Part shown: piece after piece, positions 50,196-61,408 of the stretch
How positions within the stretch are numbered: position 1 is the stretch's first letter
Layout of the letters: the number at the start of each line of letters is the position of its first letter
DNA from: Escherichia phage JK1
Sequence record: MZ436830.1
Reading direction: 5' to 3' (one strand)
Length of the DNA stretch: 64,000 bases
Notes under the pieces: generated by a model
Database searches by the model: none
What the model was told of the DNA's origin: nothing
Seen by the model: the letters and a program-made list of their open reading frames with translations, nothing else
Position numbers and translations under genes: made by a program

Positions 50196-50203
50196 TATAA
50201 ATA
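50196..50203 (+). promoter_or_regulatory. Late promoter TATAAATA (gene 34)
   Basis: Exact motif 35 nt upstream of gene 34 ATG. Confidence 0.6.
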
Positions 50204-50237: not shown

Positions 50238-53200
50238 ATGGCCGAGATTAAAAGAAAGTTCAGAGCAGAAGATGGTCTGGACGCAGGTGGTGATAAAATA
50301 ATCAACGTAGCTTTAGCTGATCGTACCGTAGGAACTGACGGTGTTAACGTTGATTACTTAATTCAAGAAAACACAGTTCAACAATACGATCCAACTCGTG
50401 GATATTTAAAAGATTTTGTAATCATTTATGATAACCGCTTTTGGGCTGCTATAAATGATATTCCAAAACCGGCAGGAGCTTTTAATAGCGGACGCTGGAG
50501 AGCATTACGTACCGATGCTAACTGGATTACAGTCTCATCTGGTTCATATCAATTAAAATCCGGTGAAGCTATTTCGGTTAACACTGCAGCTGGTAATGAT
50601 ATTACATTTACTTTACCATCTACCCCAATTGACGGTGATACTATCGTTCTCCAAGATATTGGAGGAAAACCTGGAGTTAACCAAGTTTTAATTGTAGCTC
50701 CAGTGCAAAGTATTGTAAACTTTAGAGGTGAACAGGTACGTTCAGTACTAATGACTCATCCAAAGTCACAGCTAGTTTTAATTTTTAGTAATCGTCTGTG
50801 GCAAATGTATGTAGCTGATTATAGTAGAGAAGCTGTAGTTGTAACACCAGCGAATACTTATCAAGCGCAATCTAATGATTTTATCGTGCGTAGATTTACT
50901 TCTGCTGCACCAATTAATGTTAAACTTCCAAGATTTGCTAATCATGGCGATATTATTAATTTCGTCGATTTAGATAAACTGAATCCACTTTATCATACAA
51001 TTGTTACTACATACGATGAAACGACTTCAGTACAAGAAGTTGGAACTCATTCCATTGAAGGCCGTACATCGATTGACGGTTTCTTGATGTTTGATGATAA
51101 TGAGAAATTGTGGAGATTGTTTGACGGGGATAGTAAAGCACGTTTACGCATTATAACGACTAATTCTAATATTCGTCCAAACGAAGAAGTTATGGTATTT
51201 GGTGCGAATAACGGAACAACTCAGACAATTGAACTTCAGCTTCCTACTGATATTTCTGTTGGTGATACTGTTAAAATTTCCATGAATTACATGAGAAAAG
51301 GACAAACAGTTAAAATCAAAGCTGCAGGTGAAGATAAAATTGCTTCTTCAGTTCAATTGCTGCAATTCCCAAAACGCTCAGAATATCCACCTGAAGCTGA
51401 ATGGGTTACAGTTCAAGAATTAGTTTTTAACGGTGAAACTAATTATGTTCCAGTTTTACAACTTGCTTATATAGAAGATTCTGATGGAAAATACTGGGTT
51501 GTACAGCAAAACGTTCCAACTGTAGAAAGAGTTGATTCTTTAAATGATTCTACTAGAGCAAGATTAGGCGTAATTGCTTTAGCTACACAAGCTCAAGCTA
51601 ATGTCGATTTAGAAAATTCTCCACAAAAAGAATTAGCAATTACTCCAGAAACATTAGCTAATCGTACTGCTACTGAAACTCGTAGAGGTATCGCAAGAAT
51701 AGCAACTACTGCTCAAGTGAATCAGAACACCACATTCTCTTTTGCTGATGATATTATCATCACTCCTAAAAAGCTGAATGAAAGAACTGCTACAGAAACT
51801 CGCAGAGGTGTCGCAGAAATTGCTACGCAGCAGGAAACTAATACAGGTACTGATGATACTACAATCATCACTCCTAAAAAGCTTCAAGCTCGTCAAGGTT
51901 CTGAATCATTATCTGGTATTGTAACTTTTGTATCTACTGCAGGTGCTACTCCAGCTTCTAGCCGTGAATTAAATGGTACGAATGTTTATAATAAAAACAC
52001 TAATAATTTAGTTGTTTCACCTAAAGCTTTGGATCAGTATAAAGCTACTCCAACACAGCAAGGTGCAGTAATTTTAGCAGTTGAAAGTGAAGTAATTGCT
52101 GGACAAAGTCAGGAAGGATGGGCAAATGCTGTTGTAACGCCAGAAACGTTACATAAAAAGACATCAACTGATGGAAGAATTGGTTTAATTGAAATTGCTA
52201 CGCAAAGTGAAGTTAATACAGGAACTGATTATACTCGTGCAGTCACTCCTAAAACTTTAAATGACCGTAGAGCAACTGAAAGTTTAAGTGGTATAGCTGA
52301 AATTGCTACACAGGTTGAATTCGACGCAGGCGTCGACGATACTCGTATCTCTACACCATTAAAAATTAAAACCAGATTTAATAGTACTGATCGTACTTCT
52401 GTTGTTGCTCTATCTGGATTAGTTGAATCAGGAACTCTCTGGGACCATTATACCCTTAATATTCTTGAAGCAAATGAGACACAGCGTGGTACACTTCGTG
52501 TAGCTACACAGGTCGAAGCTGCTGCAGGAACATTAGATAATGTTTTAATAACTCCTAAAAAGCTTTTAGGTACTAAATCTACCGAATCGCAAGAAGGTGT
52601 TATTAAAGTTGCAACTCAGTCTGAAACTGTAGCTGGAACGTCAGCAAATACTGCTGTATCTCCAAAAAATTTAAAATGGATTGCGCAGAGTGAACCAACC
52701 TGGGCAGCTACTACTGCGATAAGAGGTTTTGTTAAAACTTCATCCGGTTCAATTACATTCGTTGGTAATGATACAGTCGGTTCTACCCAAGATTTAGAAC
52801 TGTATGAGAAAAATAGCTATGCAGTATCACCATATGAATTAAACCGTGTATTAGCAAATTATTTACCGTTAAAAGCAAAAGCTGCTGATACAAATTTATT
52901 GGATGGTCTAGATTCATCTCAGTTCATTCGTAGGGATATTGCACAGACGGTTAATGGTTCACTAACCTTAACCCAACAAACGAATCTGAGTGCCCCTCTT
53001 GTATCATCTAGTACTGCTACGTTTGGTGGTTCAGTTTCGGCAAATAGTACATTAACTATTTCTAATACTGGAACTGCAACTCGTCTGATTTTTGAGAAAG
53101 GACCTCAAACTGGAACTAACCCAGCACAGACGATGACTATTAGAGTTTGGGGAAATCAGTTTGGCGGCGGTTCAGATACAACACGTTCTACTGTATTTGA

Positions 53201-54107
53201 AGTTGGTGATGAAACGTCTAATCACTTTTATTCTCAACGTAATAAAGCTGGGAATATAACGTTTAGTATCAATGGTACTGTAATGCCAATAAACATTAAT
53301 GCTTCGGGTTCTTTAAATGCGAATGGCGTTGCAACATTTGGTAGTTCAGTTACAGCCAATGGTGAATTCATCAGCAAGTCTGCAAATGCTTTTAGAGCAA
53401 TAAACGGTGATTATGGGTTCTTTATTCGCAATGATGCTGCTAATACCTATTTTATGCTCACTGCATCCGGTGATCAGACTGGCGGATTTAATGGATTACG
53501 TCCTTTGTCTATTAATAATGCATCTGGCCAAGTAACGATTGGTGAAAGCTTAATAATTGCCAAAGGTGCTACTATAAATTCAGGTGGTTTGACTGTTAAC
53601 TCAAGAATTCGTTCTCAGGGTACTAAAACATCTGACTTATATACCCGTGCGCCAACATCTGATACTGTAGGATTCTGGTCAATTGATATTAATGATTCAG
53701 CTACTTATAACCAGTTCCCGGGTTATTTTAAAATGGTTGAAAAAACTAATGAAGTGACTGGACTTCCGTACTTAGAACGTGGCGAAGAAGTTAAATCTCC
53801 TGGTACACTGACACAGTTTGGTAACACACTTGATTCGCTTTACCAAGATTGGATTACTTATCCAACGACACCAGAAGCGCGTACCACTCGCTGGACACGT
53901 ACATGGCAGAAAACCAAAAACTCTTGGTCAAGTTTTGTTCAGGTATTTGACGGAGGTAACCCTCCTCAACCATCTGATATCGGTGCTTTACCATCTGATA
54001 ATGCTACAATGGGGAATCTTACTATTCGTGATTTCTTACGAATTGGTAATGTTCGCATTATTCCTGACCCAGTGAATAAAACTGTTAAATTTGAATGGGT
54101 TGAATAA
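50238..54107 (+). CDS. 34: Long tail fibre proximal subunit gp34
   Basis: 1289 aa ORF; N-terminus MAEIKRKFRAEDGLDAGGDKIINVALADRT as recalled for T4 gp34; late promoter 50196-50203. Confidence 0.95.
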   Translation: MAEIKRKFRAEDGLDAGGDKIINVALADRTVGTDGVNVDYLIQENTVQQYDPTRGYLKDFVIIYDNRFWAAINDIPKPAGAFNSGRWRALRTDANWITVSSGSYQLKSGEAISVNTAAGNDITFTLPSTPIDGDTIVLQDIGGKPGVNQVLIVAPVQSIVNFRGEQVRSVLMTHPKSQLVLIFSNRLWQMYVADYSREAVVVTPANTYQAQSNDFIVRRFTSAAPINVKLPRFANHGDIINFVDLDKLNPLYHTIVTTYDETTSVQEVGTHSIEGRTSIDGFLMFDDNEKLWRLFDGDSKARLRIITTNSNIRPNEEVMVFGANNGTTQTIELQLPTDISVGDTVKISMNYMRKGQTVKIKAAGEDKIASSVQLLQFPKRSEYPPEAEWVTVQELVFNGETNYVPVLQLAYIEDSDGKYWVVQQNVPTVERVDSLNDSTRARLGVIALATQAQANVDLENSPQKELAITPETLANRTATETRRGIARIATTAQVNQNTTFSFADDIIITPKKLNERTATETRRGVAEIATQQETNTGTDDTTIITPKKLQARQGSESLSGIVTFVSTAGATPASSRELNGTNVYNKNTNNLVVSPKALDQYKATPTQQGAVILAVESEVIAGQSQEGWANAVVTPETLHKKTSTDGRIGLIEIATQSEVNTGTDYTRAVTPKTLNDRRATESLSGIAEIATQVEFDAGVDDTRISTPLKIKTRFNSTDRTSVVALSGLVESGTLWDHYTLNILEANETQRGTLRVATQVEAAAGTLDNVLITPKKLLGTKSTESQEGVIKVATQSETVAGTSANTAVSPKNLKWIAQSEPTWAATTAIRGFVKTSSGSITFVGNDTVGSTQDLELYEKNSYAVSPYELNRVLANYLPLKAKAADTNLLDGLDSSQFIRRDIAQTVNGSLTLTQQTNLSAPLVSSSTATFGGSVSANSTLTISNTGTATRLIFEKGPQTGTNPAQTMTIRVWGNQFGGGSDTTRSTVFEVGDETSNHFYSQRNKAGNITFSINGTVMPININASGSLNANGVATFGSSVTANGEFISKSANAFRAINGDYGFFIRNDAANTYFMLTASGDQTGGFNGLRPLSINNASGQVTIGESLIIAKGATINSGGLTVNSRIRSQGTKTSDLYTRAPTSDTVGFWSIDINDSATYNQFPGYFKMVEKTNEVTGLPYLERGEEVKSPGTLTQFGNTLDSLYQDWITYPTTPEARTTRWTRTWQKTKNSWSSFVQVFDGGNPPQPSDIGALPSDNATMGNLTIRDFLRIGNVRIIPDPVNKTVKFEWVE

Positions 54108-54115
54108 GAGGTATT

Positions 54116-55231
54116 ATGGAAAAATTTATGGCAGAGTTTGGACAAGGATATGTCCAAACACCATTTTTATCGGAAAGCAATTCAGTAAGATATAAAATAA
54201 GCATAGCGGGTTCTTGCCCGCTTTCTACAGCAGGACCATACGTTAAATTTCAGGATAATCCTGTAGGAAGTCAAACATTTAGCGCAGGCCTTCATTTAAG
54301 AGTTTTTGACCCTTCCACCGGAGCATTAGTTGATAGTAAATCATATGCTTTTTCGACTTCAAATGATACTACATCAGCTGCCTTTGTTAGTTTCATGAAT
54401 TCTTTGACGAATAATCGAATTGTTGCTATATTAACTAACGGAAAGGTTAATTTTCCTCCTGAAGTAGTATCTTGGTTAAGAACCGCCGGAACGTCTGCTT
54501 TTCCATCTGACTCTATATTGTCAAGATTCGACGTATCATATGCTGCTTTTTATACTTCTTCTAAAAGAGCTATTGCATTAGAGCATGTTAAACTGAGTAA
54601 TAGAAAAAGCACAGATGATTATCAAACTATTTTAGATGTTGTATTTGACAGTTTAGAAGACGTCGGAGCTACCGGGTTTCCAAGAAGAACGTATGAAAGT
54701 GTTGAGCAATTTATGTCGGCAGTCGGTGGAACTAATAACGAAATTGCGAGATTGCCAACTTCAGCTGCTATAAGTAAATTATCTGATTATAATTTAATTC
54801 CTGGTGATGTTCTTTATCTTAAAGCACAGCTATATGCTGATGCTGATTTACTTGCACTTGGAACTACAAATATATCTATCCGTTTTTATAATGCATCTAA
54901 TGGATATATTTCCTCGACACAAGCTGAGTTTACTGGGCAAGCTGGGTCATGGGAATTAAAGGAAGATTATGTAGTTGTTCCAGAAAACGCAGTAGGATTT
55001 ACGATATATGCACAAAGAACTGCGCAAGCTGGCCAAGGTGGCATGAGAAATTTAAGCTTTTCTGAAGTATCAAGAAACGGCGGTATTTCAAAACCTGCTG
55101 AATTTGGCGTCAATGGTATTCGTGTTAATTATATCTGTGAATCTGCTTCACCTCCGGATATAATGGTACTTCCTACGCAAGCATCGTCTAAAGCTGGTAA
55201 AGTGTTTGGACAAGAATTTAGAGAAGTTTAA
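54116..55231 (+). CDS. 35: Long tail fibre hinge protein gp35
   Basis: 371 aa ORF; position; terminator downstream. Confidence 0.9.
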   Translation: MEKFMAEFGQGYVQTPFLSESNSVRYKISIAGSCPLSTAGPYVKFQDNPVGSQTFSAGLHLRVFDPSTGALVDSKSYAFSTSNDTTSAAFVSFMNSLTNNRIVAILTNGKVNFPPEVVSWLRTAGTSAFPSDSILSRFDVSYAAFYTSSKRAIALEHVKLSNRKSTDDYQTILDVVFDSLEDVGATGFPRRTYESVEQFMSAVGGTNNEIARLPTSAAISKLSDYNLIPGDVLYLKAQLYADADLLALGTTNISIRFYNASNGYISSTQAEFTGQAGSWELKEDYVVVPENAVGFTIYAQRTAQAGQGGMRNLSFSEVSRNGGISKPAEFGVNGIRVNYICESASPPDIMVLPTQASSKAGKVFGQEFREV

Positions 55232-55236
55232 ATTGA

Positions 55237-55260
55237 GGGAGCCTTCGGGTTCCCTTTTTC
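55237..55260 (+). terminator. Terminator after gene 35
   Basis: GGGAGCC-TTCG-GGTTCCC hairpin followed by TTTTTCTTT. Confidence 0.7.
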
Positions 55261-55262
55261 TT

Positions 55263-55270
55263 TATAAATA
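55263..55270 (+). promoter_or_regulatory. Late promoter TATAAATA (gene 36)
   Basis: Exact motif after the gene 35 terminator, 24 nt upstream of ATG 55294. Confidence 0.6.
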
Positions 55271-55293: not shown

Positions 55294-55956
55294 ATGGCTG
55301 ATTTAAAAGTAGGTTCAACAACTGGAGGCTCTGTCATTTGGCATCAAGGAAATTTTCCATTGAATCCAGCCGGTGACGATGTACTCTATAAATCATTTAA
55401 AATATATTCAGAATATAATAAACCGCAAGCTGCTGATAACGATTTCGTTTCTAAAGCTAATGGTGGTACTTACGCCGCGACTGTTCGATTTAATGGAGGC
55501 GTACATGTTCCTACTATAGGTAGTAGTCAACAGTGTGGTGTTTATCCAGGTAACGGTGATGCAGCTACTTTTGCTATGGCAAATATTGACATCGTTTCGT
55601 GGAATGGTATTGGTTTTAAATCATCACAAGGTTCAGCAGACCGAACTGTAGTAATTAATACACGCAATGGTGATATTAGTACAAAAGGCGTTGTGACAGC
55701 AGTAGGTCAAATAAGAAGTAATGCAGTTTCTCCTGTATCAGCAAATGACCTTACTAGAAAGGACTATGTTGATGGAGCAATAAATACTGTTACGGCAAAT
55801 GCGAACTCTAGAGTGTTGCGTTCTGGCGACACTATGACAGGTAATTTAACCGCACCAAACTTTTTCTCGCAGAATCCCGCATCTCAACCTTCACATGTTC
55901 CACGATTTGACCAAATCGTAATTAAGGATTCTGTTCAAGATTTCGGCTATTATTAA
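55294..55956 (+). CDS. 36: Long tail fibre distal connector gp36
   Basis: 220 aa ORF; late promoter 55263-55270. Confidence 0.9.
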
Positions 55957-55964
55957 GAGGACTT

Positions 55965-58900
55965 ATGGCTACTTTAAAACAAATACAATTTAAAAGAAGC
56001 AAAACCGCAGGTGCACGTCCTGCTGCTTCAGTATTAGCCGAAGGTGAATTGGCTATAAACTTAAAAGATAGAACAATTTTTACTAAAGATGATACAGGAA
56101 ATATCATTGATCTAGGTATTGCTAAAGGCGGTCAAATTGATGGAAATGTAACTATTGATGGAACTTTACGCGTCAATGGACCAATAAACAACTTTGGAAA
56201 TTTTTCTACAAGTGGTACTATTACGGCAAGTAATATTGTTTCTGCTACAGTATTCAGATCAACATCCGGTTCATTTTATACAAGAGCAATAAATGATACT
56301 GCAAATGCCCATCTTTGGTTTGAAAATACAAATGGCTCAGAACGTGGCGTTTTATATTCAAAACCGCAGTCTGAAAATGAAGGCGTAATTACAATGCGTG
56401 TTCGTCAAGGAACCGCTGCGGGAGCTCAAAATTCAGAATTTCATTTCATTTCTACTGATGGCGGTATCTTCCAGGCACGCAAATTAACTGCTTTAACTTC
56501 TATTAGTACACCAACTATTAGTGTTAATTTAATTAATCATGATTCTAAAGCCTTTGGACAATACGATTCACAATCTTTGGTTAACTATGTTTATCCTGGA
56601 ACCGGTGAAACAAATGGTGTAAACTATCTTCGTAAAGTTCGTGCTAAGTCAGGCGGAACTATGTGGCATGAAATCTGTACAGCTCAGACAGGACAAGCTG
56701 ATGAAATGTCATGGTGGACTGGTAATACTCCTCAGTCTAAACAATACGGTATTCGTAATGACGGACGAATGGCTGGACGTAATAGCCTTGCATTAGGTAC
56801 ATTCACTACAAATTTCCCGTCTAGTGATTATGGCAACGTCGGTGTAATGGGCGATAAATATCTTGTTCTCGGTGACACTGTAACTGGCTTGTCATACAAA
56901 AAAACTGGTGTATTTGATCTAGTTGGCGGTGGATATTCTGTTGCTTCTATTACTCCTGACAGTTTCCGTAGTACTCGTAAAGGTATATTTGGTCGTTCCG
57001 AGGACCAAGGCACCACATGGATTATGCCTGGAACTAATGCCGCTTTCTTGTCTGTTCAAACGCAAGCTGATAATAACAATGCTGGAGACGGCCAGACGCA
57101 TATTGGGTACAATGCTGGCGGTAAAATGAGTCATTATTTCCGCGGTAAAGGCAAAACTAATATTAATACTCAGGAAGGTGTAGACGTTAACCCGGGTATA
57201 TTGAAGTTAACCACCGGCGGTGAAAGTATTAGCTTTAATGCCGCAACTGGAAGTATTAATTCTACATTAGCTTTTCGTCTTAATAAAGGCATAATTATTG
57301 ATGGACCTGATAATCAGGGATTCCAGTTTAACGCCCCGACGGCTGCAGATGGTACTAGAAGTATATACTGGAACAGTGGTACTCGCGCAGGTCAAAACAA
57401 AAGCCCTGTTACAGTTAAAGTGTGGGGTAATTCATTTAACGCATCGGGCGATCGTGCTCGTGAAACGGTTTTTGAAGTAGCTGATGGGCAAGGTTACCAT
57501 TTTTATTCTCAGCGAGTTGCTCCCGGATCAGGTTCTACTGTCGGACCTATTCAATTTCGAGTTAATGGTGGTTTATTAACTTCTGGTGGTATTACATCAT
57601 CTGGTTCTATTGTTACTGAATCAAGTTTAGTTGCCAATAATGGCATGTCAGTAAATGGTCAGGCTAAATTTGGCGGAACAGCAAACGCACTGAGAATTTG
57701 GAACGCTGAATACGGTGTTATTTTCCGTCGTTCTGAAAGTAACTTTTACATTATTCCAACCAATCAAAATGAAGGCGAAAGCGGAGACATTCATAGCTCT
57801 TTGAGACCTGTAAGAATAGGATTAAACGATGGCATGGTTGGGTTAGGAAGAGATTCTTTTATAGTAGATCAAAATAATGCTTTAACTACGATAAACAGTA
57901 ACTCTCGCATTAATGCCAACTTTAGAATGCAATTAGGGCAGTCGACATATATTGATGCAGAATGCACTGATGCCGTTAGACCTGCAGGGGCTGGTTCATT
58001 TGCCTCGCAAAATAATGAAAACGTCCGTGCTCCGTTCTATATGAATATTAATCGCACAGATACAAGTACTTACGTTCCAATTGTTAAACAGAGATACGTA
58101 CAAAATAATAGTTGCTATTCTATTGGTACTTTAATAAATGGCGGTAACTTCAGAGTTCATTATCATGAAGGTGGTGATGGCGGTTCTACTGGCGCGATTA
58201 TAAAGGATTTAGGTTGGGAATTTAATAAAAACGGTGATTTTTACTCTCCTGGTAAATTAGGTGCTGGAAATATTCGTATCGGAACAGACGGTAATATTAC
58301 GGGTGGTTCTGGTAATTTTGCTAACTTGAATACCACATTAAACCGTAAGGTCAATTCCGGATTTGTAACATACGGTGCAACTGCTGGATGGTATAAATTC
58401 GCTACAGTAACGATGCCACAATCTACTTCTACTGTTTCATTTACTATAACTGGTGGTAAAGGATTTAATACTGGACTGTTTACACAGTGTGCTATAACAG
58501 AAATTGTTCTTCGTACTGGTAATGACCGCCCAGCAGGTTTAAACGCCGTGATGTATACCAGAACAGCTGCAGGTCTTACTGATATTGCTGTAGTTAATAC
58601 CTCAGGAAATACATATGATATCTATGTTGAATCGGGTACTTATGCCAACCAATTAGCTTATACTTGGCATACAGTTGATAATGCTACCGTAGAAGTTATC
58701 GGCGCTTTTGGTCCTACTCAAAACCCAGTAGATTCTTTGCCAGTTGATCATGTTAAAGGCCAAGTAGCTAACATGCTTAACAACCTAGTAGACACTGGTA
58801 AAGTAAAACGCTATGTAGCAGAGTCGGAAATTGCTATTAATAACCCAACTGGTATTCGTATTACGAGTAATTATGATAGATCAGGTTCTAATTCCGTTTT

Positions 58901-59903
58901 ATTTCGAAATGACGGTGGAAGCTTCTATATTTTACTGACCGACAAAAACTCTTCAGACGGCGATAATAAAGCAACTGAAGGTGATTGGAATGGAAAACGA
59001 CCATTTTCAATTGATATGACTGCTGGTACTGTTCGTCTTGGCGAAAATACTTCTTTTGGTAAAGATGTTACTATTGATGGAAGCATTAATTCACGAGTTA
59101 AAGTTGTCGGACAGTGGAATGTTGGCTTTTCTGATATTTCAGATGTGACTCGTGACCGTTCTGCATTTTTAGTGAATACGGGTGGCATTTCCAAGACAAG
59201 TCAATCTTATTACCCGCTATTTTCTGGATACAGTTTTTTAACTGACGCAGGTTATCGCCAATCGTTTGAATTTGGATGGTTAGGTGTTTCTGGTACTTGG
59301 CGTCAAGGCATTATTCGCATGCGTGGTGACAACCCATCGGGGCAACAGGCTCGTTGGACTTTTGATATGGACGGAACATTTTATGCTCCTATACTATCAT
59401 GCGGATCTGCGAGAGCATTCGGTGTCAATACATCAAATGGTCTCGGTGGAAACAGTATAACATTTGGTGATAGCGATACTGGTATTAAGCAAAATGGCGA
59501 TGGATTATTAGACATATATGCGAACAGCGTACAAGTGTTCCGTTTCCAAAACGGTGATTTGTACTCATACAAAAATATAAATGCTCCAAACGTTTATATT
59601 CGTTCTGATATTCGTTTAAAATCCAACTTTAAGCCTATCGAAAATGCACTTGATAAAGTTGAAAAACTTAACGGTGTCATTTACGATAAAGCTGAATACA
59701 TCGGTGGAGAGGCAATTGAAACTGAAGCGGGTATTGTGGCTCAAACGTTACAAGACGTTTTACCAGAAGCTGTCCGTGAAACAGAAGACAGCAAGGGTAA
59801 TAAAATACTCACTGTTTCTTCTCAAGCCCAGATCGCTCTTCTGGTTGAAGCTGTGAAAACGCTTTCTTCTCGTGTAAAAGAACTTGAATCTAAACTTATG
59901 TAA
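55965..59903 (+). CDS. 37: Long tail fibre distal subunit gp37 (T2-type, with C-terminal intramolecular-chaperone-like segment)
   Basis: 1312 aa ORF; conserved N-terminal region; last ~105 aa carry SDIRLKSN...[15 protein letters not shown] resembling auto-cleaving chaperone domains. Confidence 0.9.
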
Positions 59904-59904
59904 A

Positions 59905-59930
59905 AGAGGGCTTCGGCCCTCTAAGGATTT
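59905..59930 (+). terminator. Hairpin after gene 37 (weak terminator or stability element)
   Basis: AGAGGGC-TTCG-GCCCTCT hairpin; the T-run starts only after AAGGA, which doubles as the gene 38 SD. Confidence 0.4.
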
Positions 59931-59933
59931 TTA

Positions 59934-60719
59934 ATGGCAATTGTAGGTGTTCCTGGCTGGATTGGTGAATCTGCCGTGAATGAAACTGGACAACGTTGGA
60001 TGGATGCTGCAATGAGAGCAGTCCGTGTTTCAGTTCCCGGTTGGATGAGCTCAATGGCCGGACAATCTAAAGAAGTATATTATAGCATTGGTGCTAGTAA
60101 TTCTTATAATAAAGATACATTAATAAACTGGATAAAAGCACAAGGGTCCACGCCTGTTGTTATTACTATTACAGGAAATATTGTTTCTCAATCTACTGGT
60201 GTTCCATGCTTAGATTTTCCTAGCTCATTAACTAATGCATACGTGACACTTAATATCAATTCAGGCGTGCATGTTTGGGGCCGTGGCGGGAATGGCGGAA
60301 ATAACTCTGCCGGTGGAGCAGGAGGAACTGCAATAAATAATGGAATTGGAACTAGATTGCGTATTAACAACAATGGTGTTATCGCAGGAGGCGGTGGCGG
60401 CGGTGGAGGCGGATATTATTCTCCTTTTTCACAAATGAAATTGACTTTTGGCGGTGGCGGCGGTCGTCCATTTGGTGCTGCTGGCGGGTCTGCTAATATG
60501 GAACAGGGCGCTACTGCTGGTACTATTTCTGCACCTGGTAAAGGGTCTGTCAATGGTATCTATAATGGCGGGAATGGCGGTGATGCTGGTGCCGCAGGTG
60601 GTAAATGTAATATTCGTGGGCAAGGATCAGAATATAACGGCGGTGCGGCCGGTAAAGCTGTTACTGGTAATGCTCCAACTTGGACTAAGGTTGGTACAAT
60701 ATATGGTTCAAGAGTATAA
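59934..60719 (+). CDS. 38: Receptor-recognising adhesin gp38 (T2-type, glycine-rich motifs)
   Basis: 261 aa ORF with conserved N-terminus and several poly-Gly blocks (GGGGGGGGGY, FGGGGGRPFG) separated by variable segments. Confidence 0.85.
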   Translation: MAIVGVPGWIGESAVNETGQRWMDAAMRAVRVSVPGWMSSMAGQSKEVYYSIGASNSYNKDTLINWIKAQGSTPVVITITGNIVSQSTGVPCLDFPSSLTNAYVTLNINSGVHVWGRGGNGGNNSAGGAGGTAINNGIGTRLRINNNGVIAGGGGGGGGGYYSPFSQMKLTFGGGGGRPFGAAGGSANMEQGATAGTISAPGKGSVNGIYNGGNGGDAGAAGGKCNIRGQGSEYNGGAAGKAVTGNAPTWTKVGTIYGSRV

Positions 60720-60751
60720 TTTTTGAATAAATATCCTTAAAAGGAGGGTCT

Positions 60752-61408
60752 ATGGCAGCACCTAGAATATCATTTTCGCCCTCTGATATTCTATTTGGTG
60801 TTCTAGATCGCTTGTTCAAAGATAACGCTACCGGGAAAGTTCTTGCTTCCCGGGTAGCTGTCGTAATTCTTTTATTTATGATGGCGATTGTTTGGTATAG
60901 GGGAGATAGTTTCTTTGAGTACTATAAGCAATCAAAGTATGAAACATACAGTGAAATTATTGAAAAGGAAAGAAATGCACGCTTTGAATCTGTCGCCCTG
61001 GAACAACTCCAGATAGTTCATATATCATCTGAGGCAGACTTTAGTGCGGTGTATTCTTTCCGCCCTAAAAACTTAAACTATTTTGTTGATATTATAGCAT
61101 ACGAAGGAAGATTACCTTCAACAATAACTGAAAAATCACTTGGAGGATATCCTGTTGATAAAACTATGGATGAATATATAGTTCATTTAAATGGACGTCA
61201 TTATTATTCTGACTCAAAATTTGCTTTTTTACCAACTAAAAAGCCTACTCCCGAAATAAACTACATGTACAGTTGTCCATATTTTAATTTGGATAATATC
61301 TATGCTGGAACGATAACCATGTACTGGTATAGAAATGATCATATAAGTAATGACCGCCTTGAATCAATATGTGCTCAGGCGGCCAGAATATTAGGAAGGG
61401 CTAAATAA
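60752..61408 (+). CDS. t: Holin T
   Basis: 218 aa ORF; N-terminal TM segment followed by a large periplasmic domain; strong RBS AAGGAGG. Confidence 0.88.
   Translation: MAAPRISFSPSDILFGVLDRLFKDNATGKVLASRVAVVILLFMMAIVWYRGDSFFEYYKQSKYETYSEIIEKERNARFESVALEQLQIVHISSEADFSAVYSFRPKNLNYFVDIIAYEGRLPSTITEKSLGGYPVDKTMDEYIVHLNGRHYYSDSKFAFLPTKKPTPEINYMYSCPYFNLDNIYAGTITMYWYRNDHISNDRLESICAQAARILGRAK

Follow-up and report, generated by a model that had tools for sequence, protein, structure and literature searches.

Genes 37 and 38 of Escherichia phage JK1 lie side by side at 55965-60719 on the + strand of the 64,000-nucleotide (nt) stretch of sequence record MZ436830.1 that was analysed here (the window; all positions are given in its numbering). 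Their products, gp37 and gp38, carry the domain homologies of the distal half and the tip of a T2-type long tail fibre. An original prediction, made from the sequence alone, had described the region as a T2-type distal tail fibre module; the lengths it gave for the two products (1312 and 261 amino acids (aa)) and its module boundaries were exact, the latter coinciding with the gene 37 start and the gene 38 stop, and the length of ~1026 aa that it gave for T4 gp37 agrees with the T4 sequence (156542-159622). In the following list the domain names of gp38 follow PMC12032242, with GRM standing for glycine-rich motif and HVS for hypervariable segment.

55965-59903, + strand: gene 37, long tail fibre distal subunit; 1312-aa precursor, 140.7 kDa, open reading frame intact
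55965-58496, + strand: gp37 aa 1-844, T4-homologous shaft; 68.8% aa identity (blastp), patchy 56-97% nt identity (sliding identity)
57354-57977, + strand: gp37 aa 464-671, gp34-type C-terminal trimerisation region; Pfam Gp34_trimer E=2.9e-10, PDB 4UXE/5NXF E~5e-17
58497-59603, + strand: gp37 aa 845-1213, T2-type distal shaft and predicted gp38-docking tip without T4 counterpart; ends ...NAPNVYIR
59604-59900, + strand: gp37 aa 1214-1312, Peptidase_S74 intramolecular chaperone domain; 99 aa, 10.8 kDa
59905-59922, + strand: C(UUCG)G tetraloop hairpin with 7-bp stem, within the 30 nt that separate gene 37 from gene 38
59934-60719, + strand: gene 38, T2-type tail-fibre tip adhesin; 261 aa, 25.8 kDa, open reading frame intact
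59934-60059, + strand: gp38 aa 1-42, N-terminal attachment domain with W9, W22 and W37; T2 subtype, 41/42 identical to T2
60060-60278, + strand: gp38 aa 43-115, linker and beta-helix scaffold; T2/Bas43/Bas45 lineage, 26/73 identical to T6
60279-60653, + strand: gp38 aa 116-240, specificity domain; 37% Gly
60279-60299, + strand: GRM1, gp38 aa 116-122
60300-60386, + strand: HVS1 of the gp38 specificity domain
60387-60413, + strand: GRM2, gp38 aa 152-160
60414-60449, + strand: HVS2, T6/Bas35-37 (Tsx) type
60450-60476, + strand: GRM3, gp38 aa 173-181
60477-60566, + strand: HVS3, T6/Bas35-37 (Tsx) type
60567-60602, + strand: GRM4, gp38 aa 212-223
60603-60638, + strand: HVS4, T6/Bas35-37 (Tsx) type
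60639-60653, + strand: GRM5, gp38 aa 236-240
60654-60716, + strand: gp38 aa 241-261, conserved C-terminal strand back to the beta-helix; T2 lineage, 21/21 identical to Bas43/Bas45 and 14/21 to T6

Domains of gp37 and gp38

Full-length alignment of gp37 with T2 gp37 gives 64.5% identity, and by blastp the protein is 99.5% identical to gp37 of vB_Eco_Geo (6 substitutions), 98.2% to that of Kelasse and 92.8% to that of Bas43. Its similarity to T4 gp37 is patchy from ~56150 and the alignment is gone after ~58400 (aa 844 corresponds to nt 58496). The C-terminal part aligns to S16 gp37 in PDB 6F45_A (E=4e-12), and the last 60 residues before S1214 are all identical to T2 (60/60). The receptor-binding needle of T4 gp37 was sought by its HxH motifs, of which the whole protein holds one (aa 732) versus eight in T4, and a PDB search with gp37 returned no match to the T4 gp37 needle tip. 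The likeness of aa 464-671 to the proximal subunit gp34 is an internal duplication common to both half-fibres.

The last 99 of the 1312 residues of this distal fibre subunit, immediately downstream of a part homologous to the trimeric tip in 6F45_A, make up the chaperone domain, which is identical to its T2 counterpart at 98 of 99 positions. Pfam PF13884 (Peptidase_S74) matches aa 1214-1271 over model positions 1-58, its full length (E=3e-15, 56.7 bits, cutoff 22). The Ser-Lys dyad is present at the predicted site as S1214 and K1219 of the motif SDIRLK, the Lys five residues after the Ser, a spacing that forms the catalytic dyad in MyRF (S587/K592) and endoNF (S911/K916) (PMC8326128). In the 6F45_A alignment, NVYIR^SDIRLKS lines up with DLNVS^SDRRIKK, the experimentally defined site of autocleavage in S16 (PMC7917993), and SDIRLK is also in register with MyRF A587(S587A)DLRAK592. 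Because SDIRLK aligns with the S16 site and with the MyRF/endoNF dyad, autocleavage is predicted at R1213^S1214, which would leave a mature chain of 1213 aa (129.9 kDa) and a released domain of 10.8 kDa. By analogy with S16 and with T2, whose gp37 Trojet et al. (2011) report as processed with reference to Drexler et al., autoproteolytic release would be expected to follow trimer folding. The last ~28 residues look helical, judged by eye only, and may be the helix of a trimeric coiled coil. The domain is thus of the auto-cleaving chaperone type that the original prediction had named; the end motif that it quoted is present, at aa 1214-1271, and is not the literal end of the protein, which runs on for 41 residues more. 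Drexler et al. are reported to have put the number of residues removed from T2 gp37 at ~120.

Gene 38 follows directly 3' of gene 37, and a T2-subtype gp37 tip and chaperone domain are paired with a T2-subtype gp38 N-terminus. Gp38 matches Pfam Gp38_N (PF21721) at aa 1-42 (E=8e-18, 64.6 bits) and the adhesin-body family GP38 (PF05268) at aa 47-261 (E=3.5e-72, 243 bits), and it is homologous to the S16 adhesin (PDB 6F45_D, aa 8-259, E=2.7e-49) and to the PP01 gp38 receptor-binding domain (PDB 9V85, E=1e-33). The Peptidase_S74, GP38 and Gp38_N signals are far stronger than chance would give. Alignment of the window gp38 with ten other adhesins (11 sequences in all), of which nine belong to phages whose receptor has been assigned by experiment, found W9, W22, W37 and the GRM glycines to be invariant. 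Five GRMs framing four HVSs are the textbook layout of such an adhesin; a T2/K3/Ox2-type adhesin with four or five poly-glycine blocks had been foreseen, and five are found within a glycine-rich framework that is conserved on alignment. A tandem-repeat scan had as its only find a GGN run at 60387-60412, which is GRM2. Adhesins of this kind are monomeric, and their HVS loops project from a polyglycine-II sandwich of three layers that the GRMs build (PMC12032242); gp38 is strongly homologous to two crystal structures with this fold (E=2.7e-49 and 1e-33) and may share it. In S16, the N-terminal Trp prongs of gp38 plug into the gp37 tip (PMC7917993).

Receptor assignment and alternative readings

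A tblastn search found gp38 to be 100% aa identical to the adhesins of JLBYU22, teqsoen, teqhal, slur02/04/11/13, JK38 and Bas39 FriedrichMiescher, among others. The primary receptor of Bas39 is listed as Tsx and its terminal receptor as the deep core of lipopolysaccharide (LPS), and Bas43 is likewise listed as Tsx-dependent (both BASEL Table S5). Compared with T6 and Bas35-37, all of which use Tsx, identity is 10-11/12 in HVS2, 23-24/30 in HVS3 and 10-11/12 in HVS4; the corresponding values are 3/12, 20/34 and 7/12 for Bas45, which uses OmpA, and 0/12, 7/32 and 3/15 for T2, which uses FadL. Positions 167, 168 and 208 are implicated in the gain of OmpA recognition by PST, and the residues of the window gp38 there (Q167, M168, G208) are T6-like, not the 167R/168I/208I of PST. 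Since gp38 is identical to the Bas39 adhesin and its HVS2-4 are of T6 type, the nucleoside channel Tsx is most probably the primary receptor, and the variable segments do allow a receptor type to be inferred, as the original prediction had proposed. Assignment by global gp38 identity was considered and rejected: Bas45 (OmpA, 223/265) scores about as high as Bas43 (Tsx, 222/263), and both lie far above T6 (169/261). On these alignments global identity is misleading when taken alone; nothing but the HVS segments and the exact match to Bas39 can guide the assignment. PMC12032242 adds no receptor data for these alleles, since AV115 and Bas39 are both absent from its main text.

Taken as a whole, genes 37 and 38 would encode the T2-type distal half and tip of a Tequatrovirus long tail fibre, including self-cleavage, capping and use of Tsx, a reading to which we assign a probability of about 90%. 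Three 1312-aa gp37 chains would fold into the distal shaft, with S1214-M1312 (99 residues) acting as an intramolecular chaperone that sets the three chains in register. Once the trimer has folded, Ser1214 and Lys1219 would cut the R1213-S1214 bond, leaving mature chains of 1213 aa (129.9 kDa) that end in ...NVYIR. The cut would expose a tip on which one gp38 monomer then docks by the W9, W22 and W37 of its N-terminal domain, while the C-terminal half of gp38, a putative polyglycine-II sandwich of five GRMs, would display the four hypervariable loops. With T6-type loops on a protein identical to the Bas39 adhesin, Tsx would be the most probable primary receptor. Each element of this scheme is established T-even biology and already known (Drexler 1986; Trojet 2011; S16 structure 6F45).

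Several points weigh against this reading or limit its reach. We infer gp37 cleavage, gp38 docking and receptor use all by homology. The Tsx dependence of the identical adhesin concerns E. coli K-12 only, on a different gp37 shaft: the Bas39 gp37 has 1260 aa and is 54-69% identical to the window gp37 over most of its length. A few changes in HVS2 and HVS3 let relatives such as PST add OmpA, the closest non-Tsx adhesin by global identity is that of the OmpA phage Bas45 (223/265), and extra receptors might be used on other hosts. The hairpin between the two genes has a modest score (z=-2.1 only).

The same points bear on the possibility that the main or an additional receptor is not Tsx, whether OmpA, a Tsx/OmpA pair as in PST, or one that depends on the shaft or the natural host. 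In its favour stand the rank of Bas45 among the non-Tsx adhesins and the literature, in which a handful of HVS changes is enough to shift specificity or widen it and OmpA type-1 adhesins group close to Tsx binders in phylogeny. We consider it improbable, given that gp38 is residue for residue the gp38 of the Tsx-listed Bas39, that HVS2-4 match the Tsx binders and not Bas45, and that positions 167, 168 and 208 are T6-like. It is very improbable that the mature fibre keeps the 99 C-terminal residues, be it to cap the structure or to give gp38 a docking platform, a proposal that runs against the intact Ser/Lys dyad, the 98/99 identity to the domain of a T2 protein reported as processed, and the exposure of the gp38 docking surface by cleavage itself in S16 (PMC7917993).

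A T4-type arrangement, in which gp37 bears the receptor-binding tip and gp38 is an assembly chaperone outside the virion, would agree with the T4 homology of the proximal 844 aa of gp37 and with the names that records give to identical or near-identical gp38 proteins, 'distal long tail fiber assembly catalyst' or 'Tail assembly protein'. It is scarcely credible for this locus: the T4 gp38 chaperone (183 aa) and the window gp38 have no blastp match at E<=10, gp38 instead matches adhesin families and the S16 and PP01 crystal structures, gp37 lacks the T4 needle by both the HxH count and the PDB search, and the T4 RefSeq note itself calls the T2-subfamily gp38 an unrelated adhesin.

Those labels, in our view, are a T4-derived misnomer. 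In public records the identical adhesin appears as 'distal long tail fiber assembly catalyst', 'Tail assembly protein' or 'hypothetical protein', and a note in the Bas39 record labels gp34 as 'Gp37'. Shigella phage Sf25 (MF327009, 83801-84471) has an otherwise identical gp38 split into two coding sequences (85% covered, in two pieces), which could reflect a frameshift or a sequencing error, perhaps in a poly-glycine GGN run. An 'attP' annotated in Kha5h under the module is a 13-bp motif inside gene 37 and was rejected as an annotation artefact.

Mosaic structure and related loci

The fibre genes were mapped by a sliding identity scan against nine reference loci. The original prediction had placed one mosaic junction between gene 35 and the distal part of gene 37; a switch from T4 to T2 type does fall in that interval, at gp37 aa ~844 (nt ~58,497), and the scan resolves several junctions along the fibre genes instead of a single boundary. 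The gp37 allele is itself a patchwork, IME339-like at ~56.6-57.5 kb and Bas43-like at ~57.65-59.45 kb. The segment that follows, 59451-60050, covers the chaperone domain and the gp38 N-terminus, and its conservation is 95-100% throughout the T2-subtype phages of the comparison; the subtype of T6 and Bas35-37 is a different one. Inside the chaperone-coding part of this segment lies a change of nearest relative:

59685-59843, + strand: nearest-relative switch, Geo/Kelasse-type upstream to Bas39/slur02/IME339-type downstream (informative-site table)

Bas43, whose gp38 is nearly identical to that of Geo, is listed as Tsx-dependent, so the exchange would swap one Tsx-type adhesin for another. Gp38 is chimeric in its own right, with T6-type HVS2-4 set in a T2-lineage scaffold (aa 1-115 and 241-261) and joints at GRM2 and GRM5. 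Across this graft the nt identity to T6 is only 66-79%, which argues that the T6-type loop graft is old. Both parts of the gp37/gp38 haplotype are known. Their combination appears to be undescribed in the databases searched, because 59300-60800 has no match in the phage collection that covers it in full at >90% identity and the exact gp37 sequence is not on record in an index of 153 billion genes (exact look-up).

At least four different gp37 shafts carry this one gp38 allele, of 1260 aa in Bas39, 1273 in slur02, 1282 in IME339 (gp38 99.2% identical) and 1312 here, and these shafts differ mainly at aa ~845-1150. It is doubtful, if conceivable, that the distal shaft of gp37 adds a second determinant of host range, acting for instance through lateral contacts with LPS or O-antigen and reshuffled separately from gp38. 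Two further patches, at 53001-53450 in gene 34 and 55401-55850 in gene 36, have 59-85% identity to T4, T2 or slur02 between flanks of 95-100%; on this profile we read them as further exchanged segments outside the gene 37-38 module.

Among known systems T2 (LC348380) is the archetype, with the same gene order 34-35-36-37-38-t and near identity in the chaperone domain (98/99), docking tip (60/60) and gp38 attachment domain (41/42). T2 differs in a gp37 of 1341 versus 1312 aa (64.5% identity), in unrelated HVS2-4 and in its receptor, FadL (OmpF also reported), where Tsx is the probable receptor here. The best matches to the whole module are vB_Eco_Geo, Kelasse, Kha5h (93.8% nt identity across the module) and Bas43 TadeuszReichstein, which have a gp37 of the same length and differ in a gp38 of 263 aa, ~85% identical, with HVS2-4 at 6/12, 16/30 and 3/14. 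Bas39 (MZ501066), slur02, teqsoen, teqhal, JK38 and JLBYU22 share 100% of both gp38 and holin t; their gp37 shaft is another one (1260 aa in Bas39, 1273 in slur02), with only the last ~170 aa 90-91% identical. T6 (MH550421) and Bas35-37 have nearly the same HVS2-4 and GRMs in a gapless alignment at 261 aa, whereas the T6 attachment domain (28/42) and beta-helix scaffold (26/73) are of a different subtype and the T6 gp37 (994 aa) is largely unrelated, its C-terminal region being ~30% identical.

Both window proteins are homologous to the S16 tip complex (6F45), and gp38 to that of PP01 (9V85), with like cleavage motif, Trp prongs and GRM framework; S16 and PP01 both bind OmpC, their loops differ, and the chaperone segment reported for S16 has 113 aa versus 99 aa here. 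T4 has the same late-promoter and operon layout and 96%, 99%, 85% and 69% identity in gp34, gp35, gp36 and gp37 aa 1-844, respectively. It differs in that its gp37 ends in an iron-binding HxH needle, which is the adhesin itself, and that its gp38 is an unrelated 183-aa chaperone; both are absent here. The intramolecular chaperone domains of endosialidase endoNF, the T5 L-shaped fibre, GA-1 gp12 and MyRF belong to the same Pfam family, have the same Ser-x4-Lys dyad and likewise terminate a trimeric fibre. Cleavage here would differ from theirs in making a docking site for a separate adhesin, not just a mature enzyme or fibre.

Operon context and implications

Genes 34-35-36-37-38-t, all on the + strand, form the canonical T-even long-tail-fibre operon, of which the following elements flank the module.

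50238-54107, + strand: gene 34; 1289 aa, 96.2% aa identity to T4
54116-55231, + strand: gene 35; 371 aa, 98.7% aa identity to T4
55263-55270, + strand: T4-type late promoter TATAAATA upstream of gene 36 (motif scan)
55294-55956, + strand: gene 36, distal hinge connector; 220 aa, Pfam Phage_T4_gp36 E=1.4e-37, 85.1% aa identity to T4
60752-61408, + strand: holin gene t; 218 aa, 97.2% identity to T4 t

Gp34 and gp35 are T4-like, as the original prediction had it; gene 36, which it omitted, lies between gene 35 and the module and is diverged from T4 in its centre (55401-55850, 77-87% nt identity). On the + strand between 49 and 62 kb the motif scan found two copies of TATAAATA, at 50196 before gene 34 and at 55263 before gene 36. 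With no other copy between 55263 and gene t, genes 36, 37 and 38 probably form one late transcript. The 32-nt spacer between gene 38 and holin t holds AATAAATA at 60726-60733, one mismatch from the late-promoter consensus, a possible weak late promoter from which t would be transcribed separately. The hairpin in the spacer between genes 37 and 38 (-13.4 kcal/mol, z=-2.1) is followed directly 3' by the gene 38 Shine-Dalgarno sequence AAGGA (59923-59927) and may serve either mRNA stabilisation or weak attenuation. Another C(UUCG)G-type hairpin, with a 9-bp stem and a U-run, lies at 55235-55262 (-15.1 kcal/mol, z=-3.2), between the end of gene 35 and the 55263 late promoter; it looks like an intrinsic terminator or stabiliser that divides the 34-35 from the 36-38 transcripts.

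The window as a whole is that of an ordinary Tequatrovirus, its first 50 kb being 97-98% identical to many sequenced T4-like phages of E. coli and Shigella. Scans of the 64-kb window found no tRNA genes and no Rfam families at the gathering threshold; no group I intron was detected in 1-64000, and nrdA and nrdB are annotated in related records matching 25001-50000. In gp35 (54116-55231), aa 58-127 match Pfam ILEI (interleukin-like EMT inducer/FAM3-type) above threshold (E=6e-9, 36.7 bits), which would fit the 'GG domain' link of phage gp35 with FAM3/POMGnT1.

The value of the locus lies mainly in annotation and host-range prediction, and it opens no new question. Adsorption most probably goes through Tsx, as with T6 and Bas39, in which case tsx mutants would be resistant and a host whose tsx does not work, E. 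coli B REL606 for one, would escape infection. Were the distal shaft a host-range determinant as well, the haplotype of a Geo shaft with a Bas39 adhesin would have the host range of neither parent type. The locus is a clean natural case of adhesin exchange through the conserved segment that runs from the gp37 chaperone domain into the N-terminus of gp38, and host-range engineering of T-even phages makes use of this very junction.

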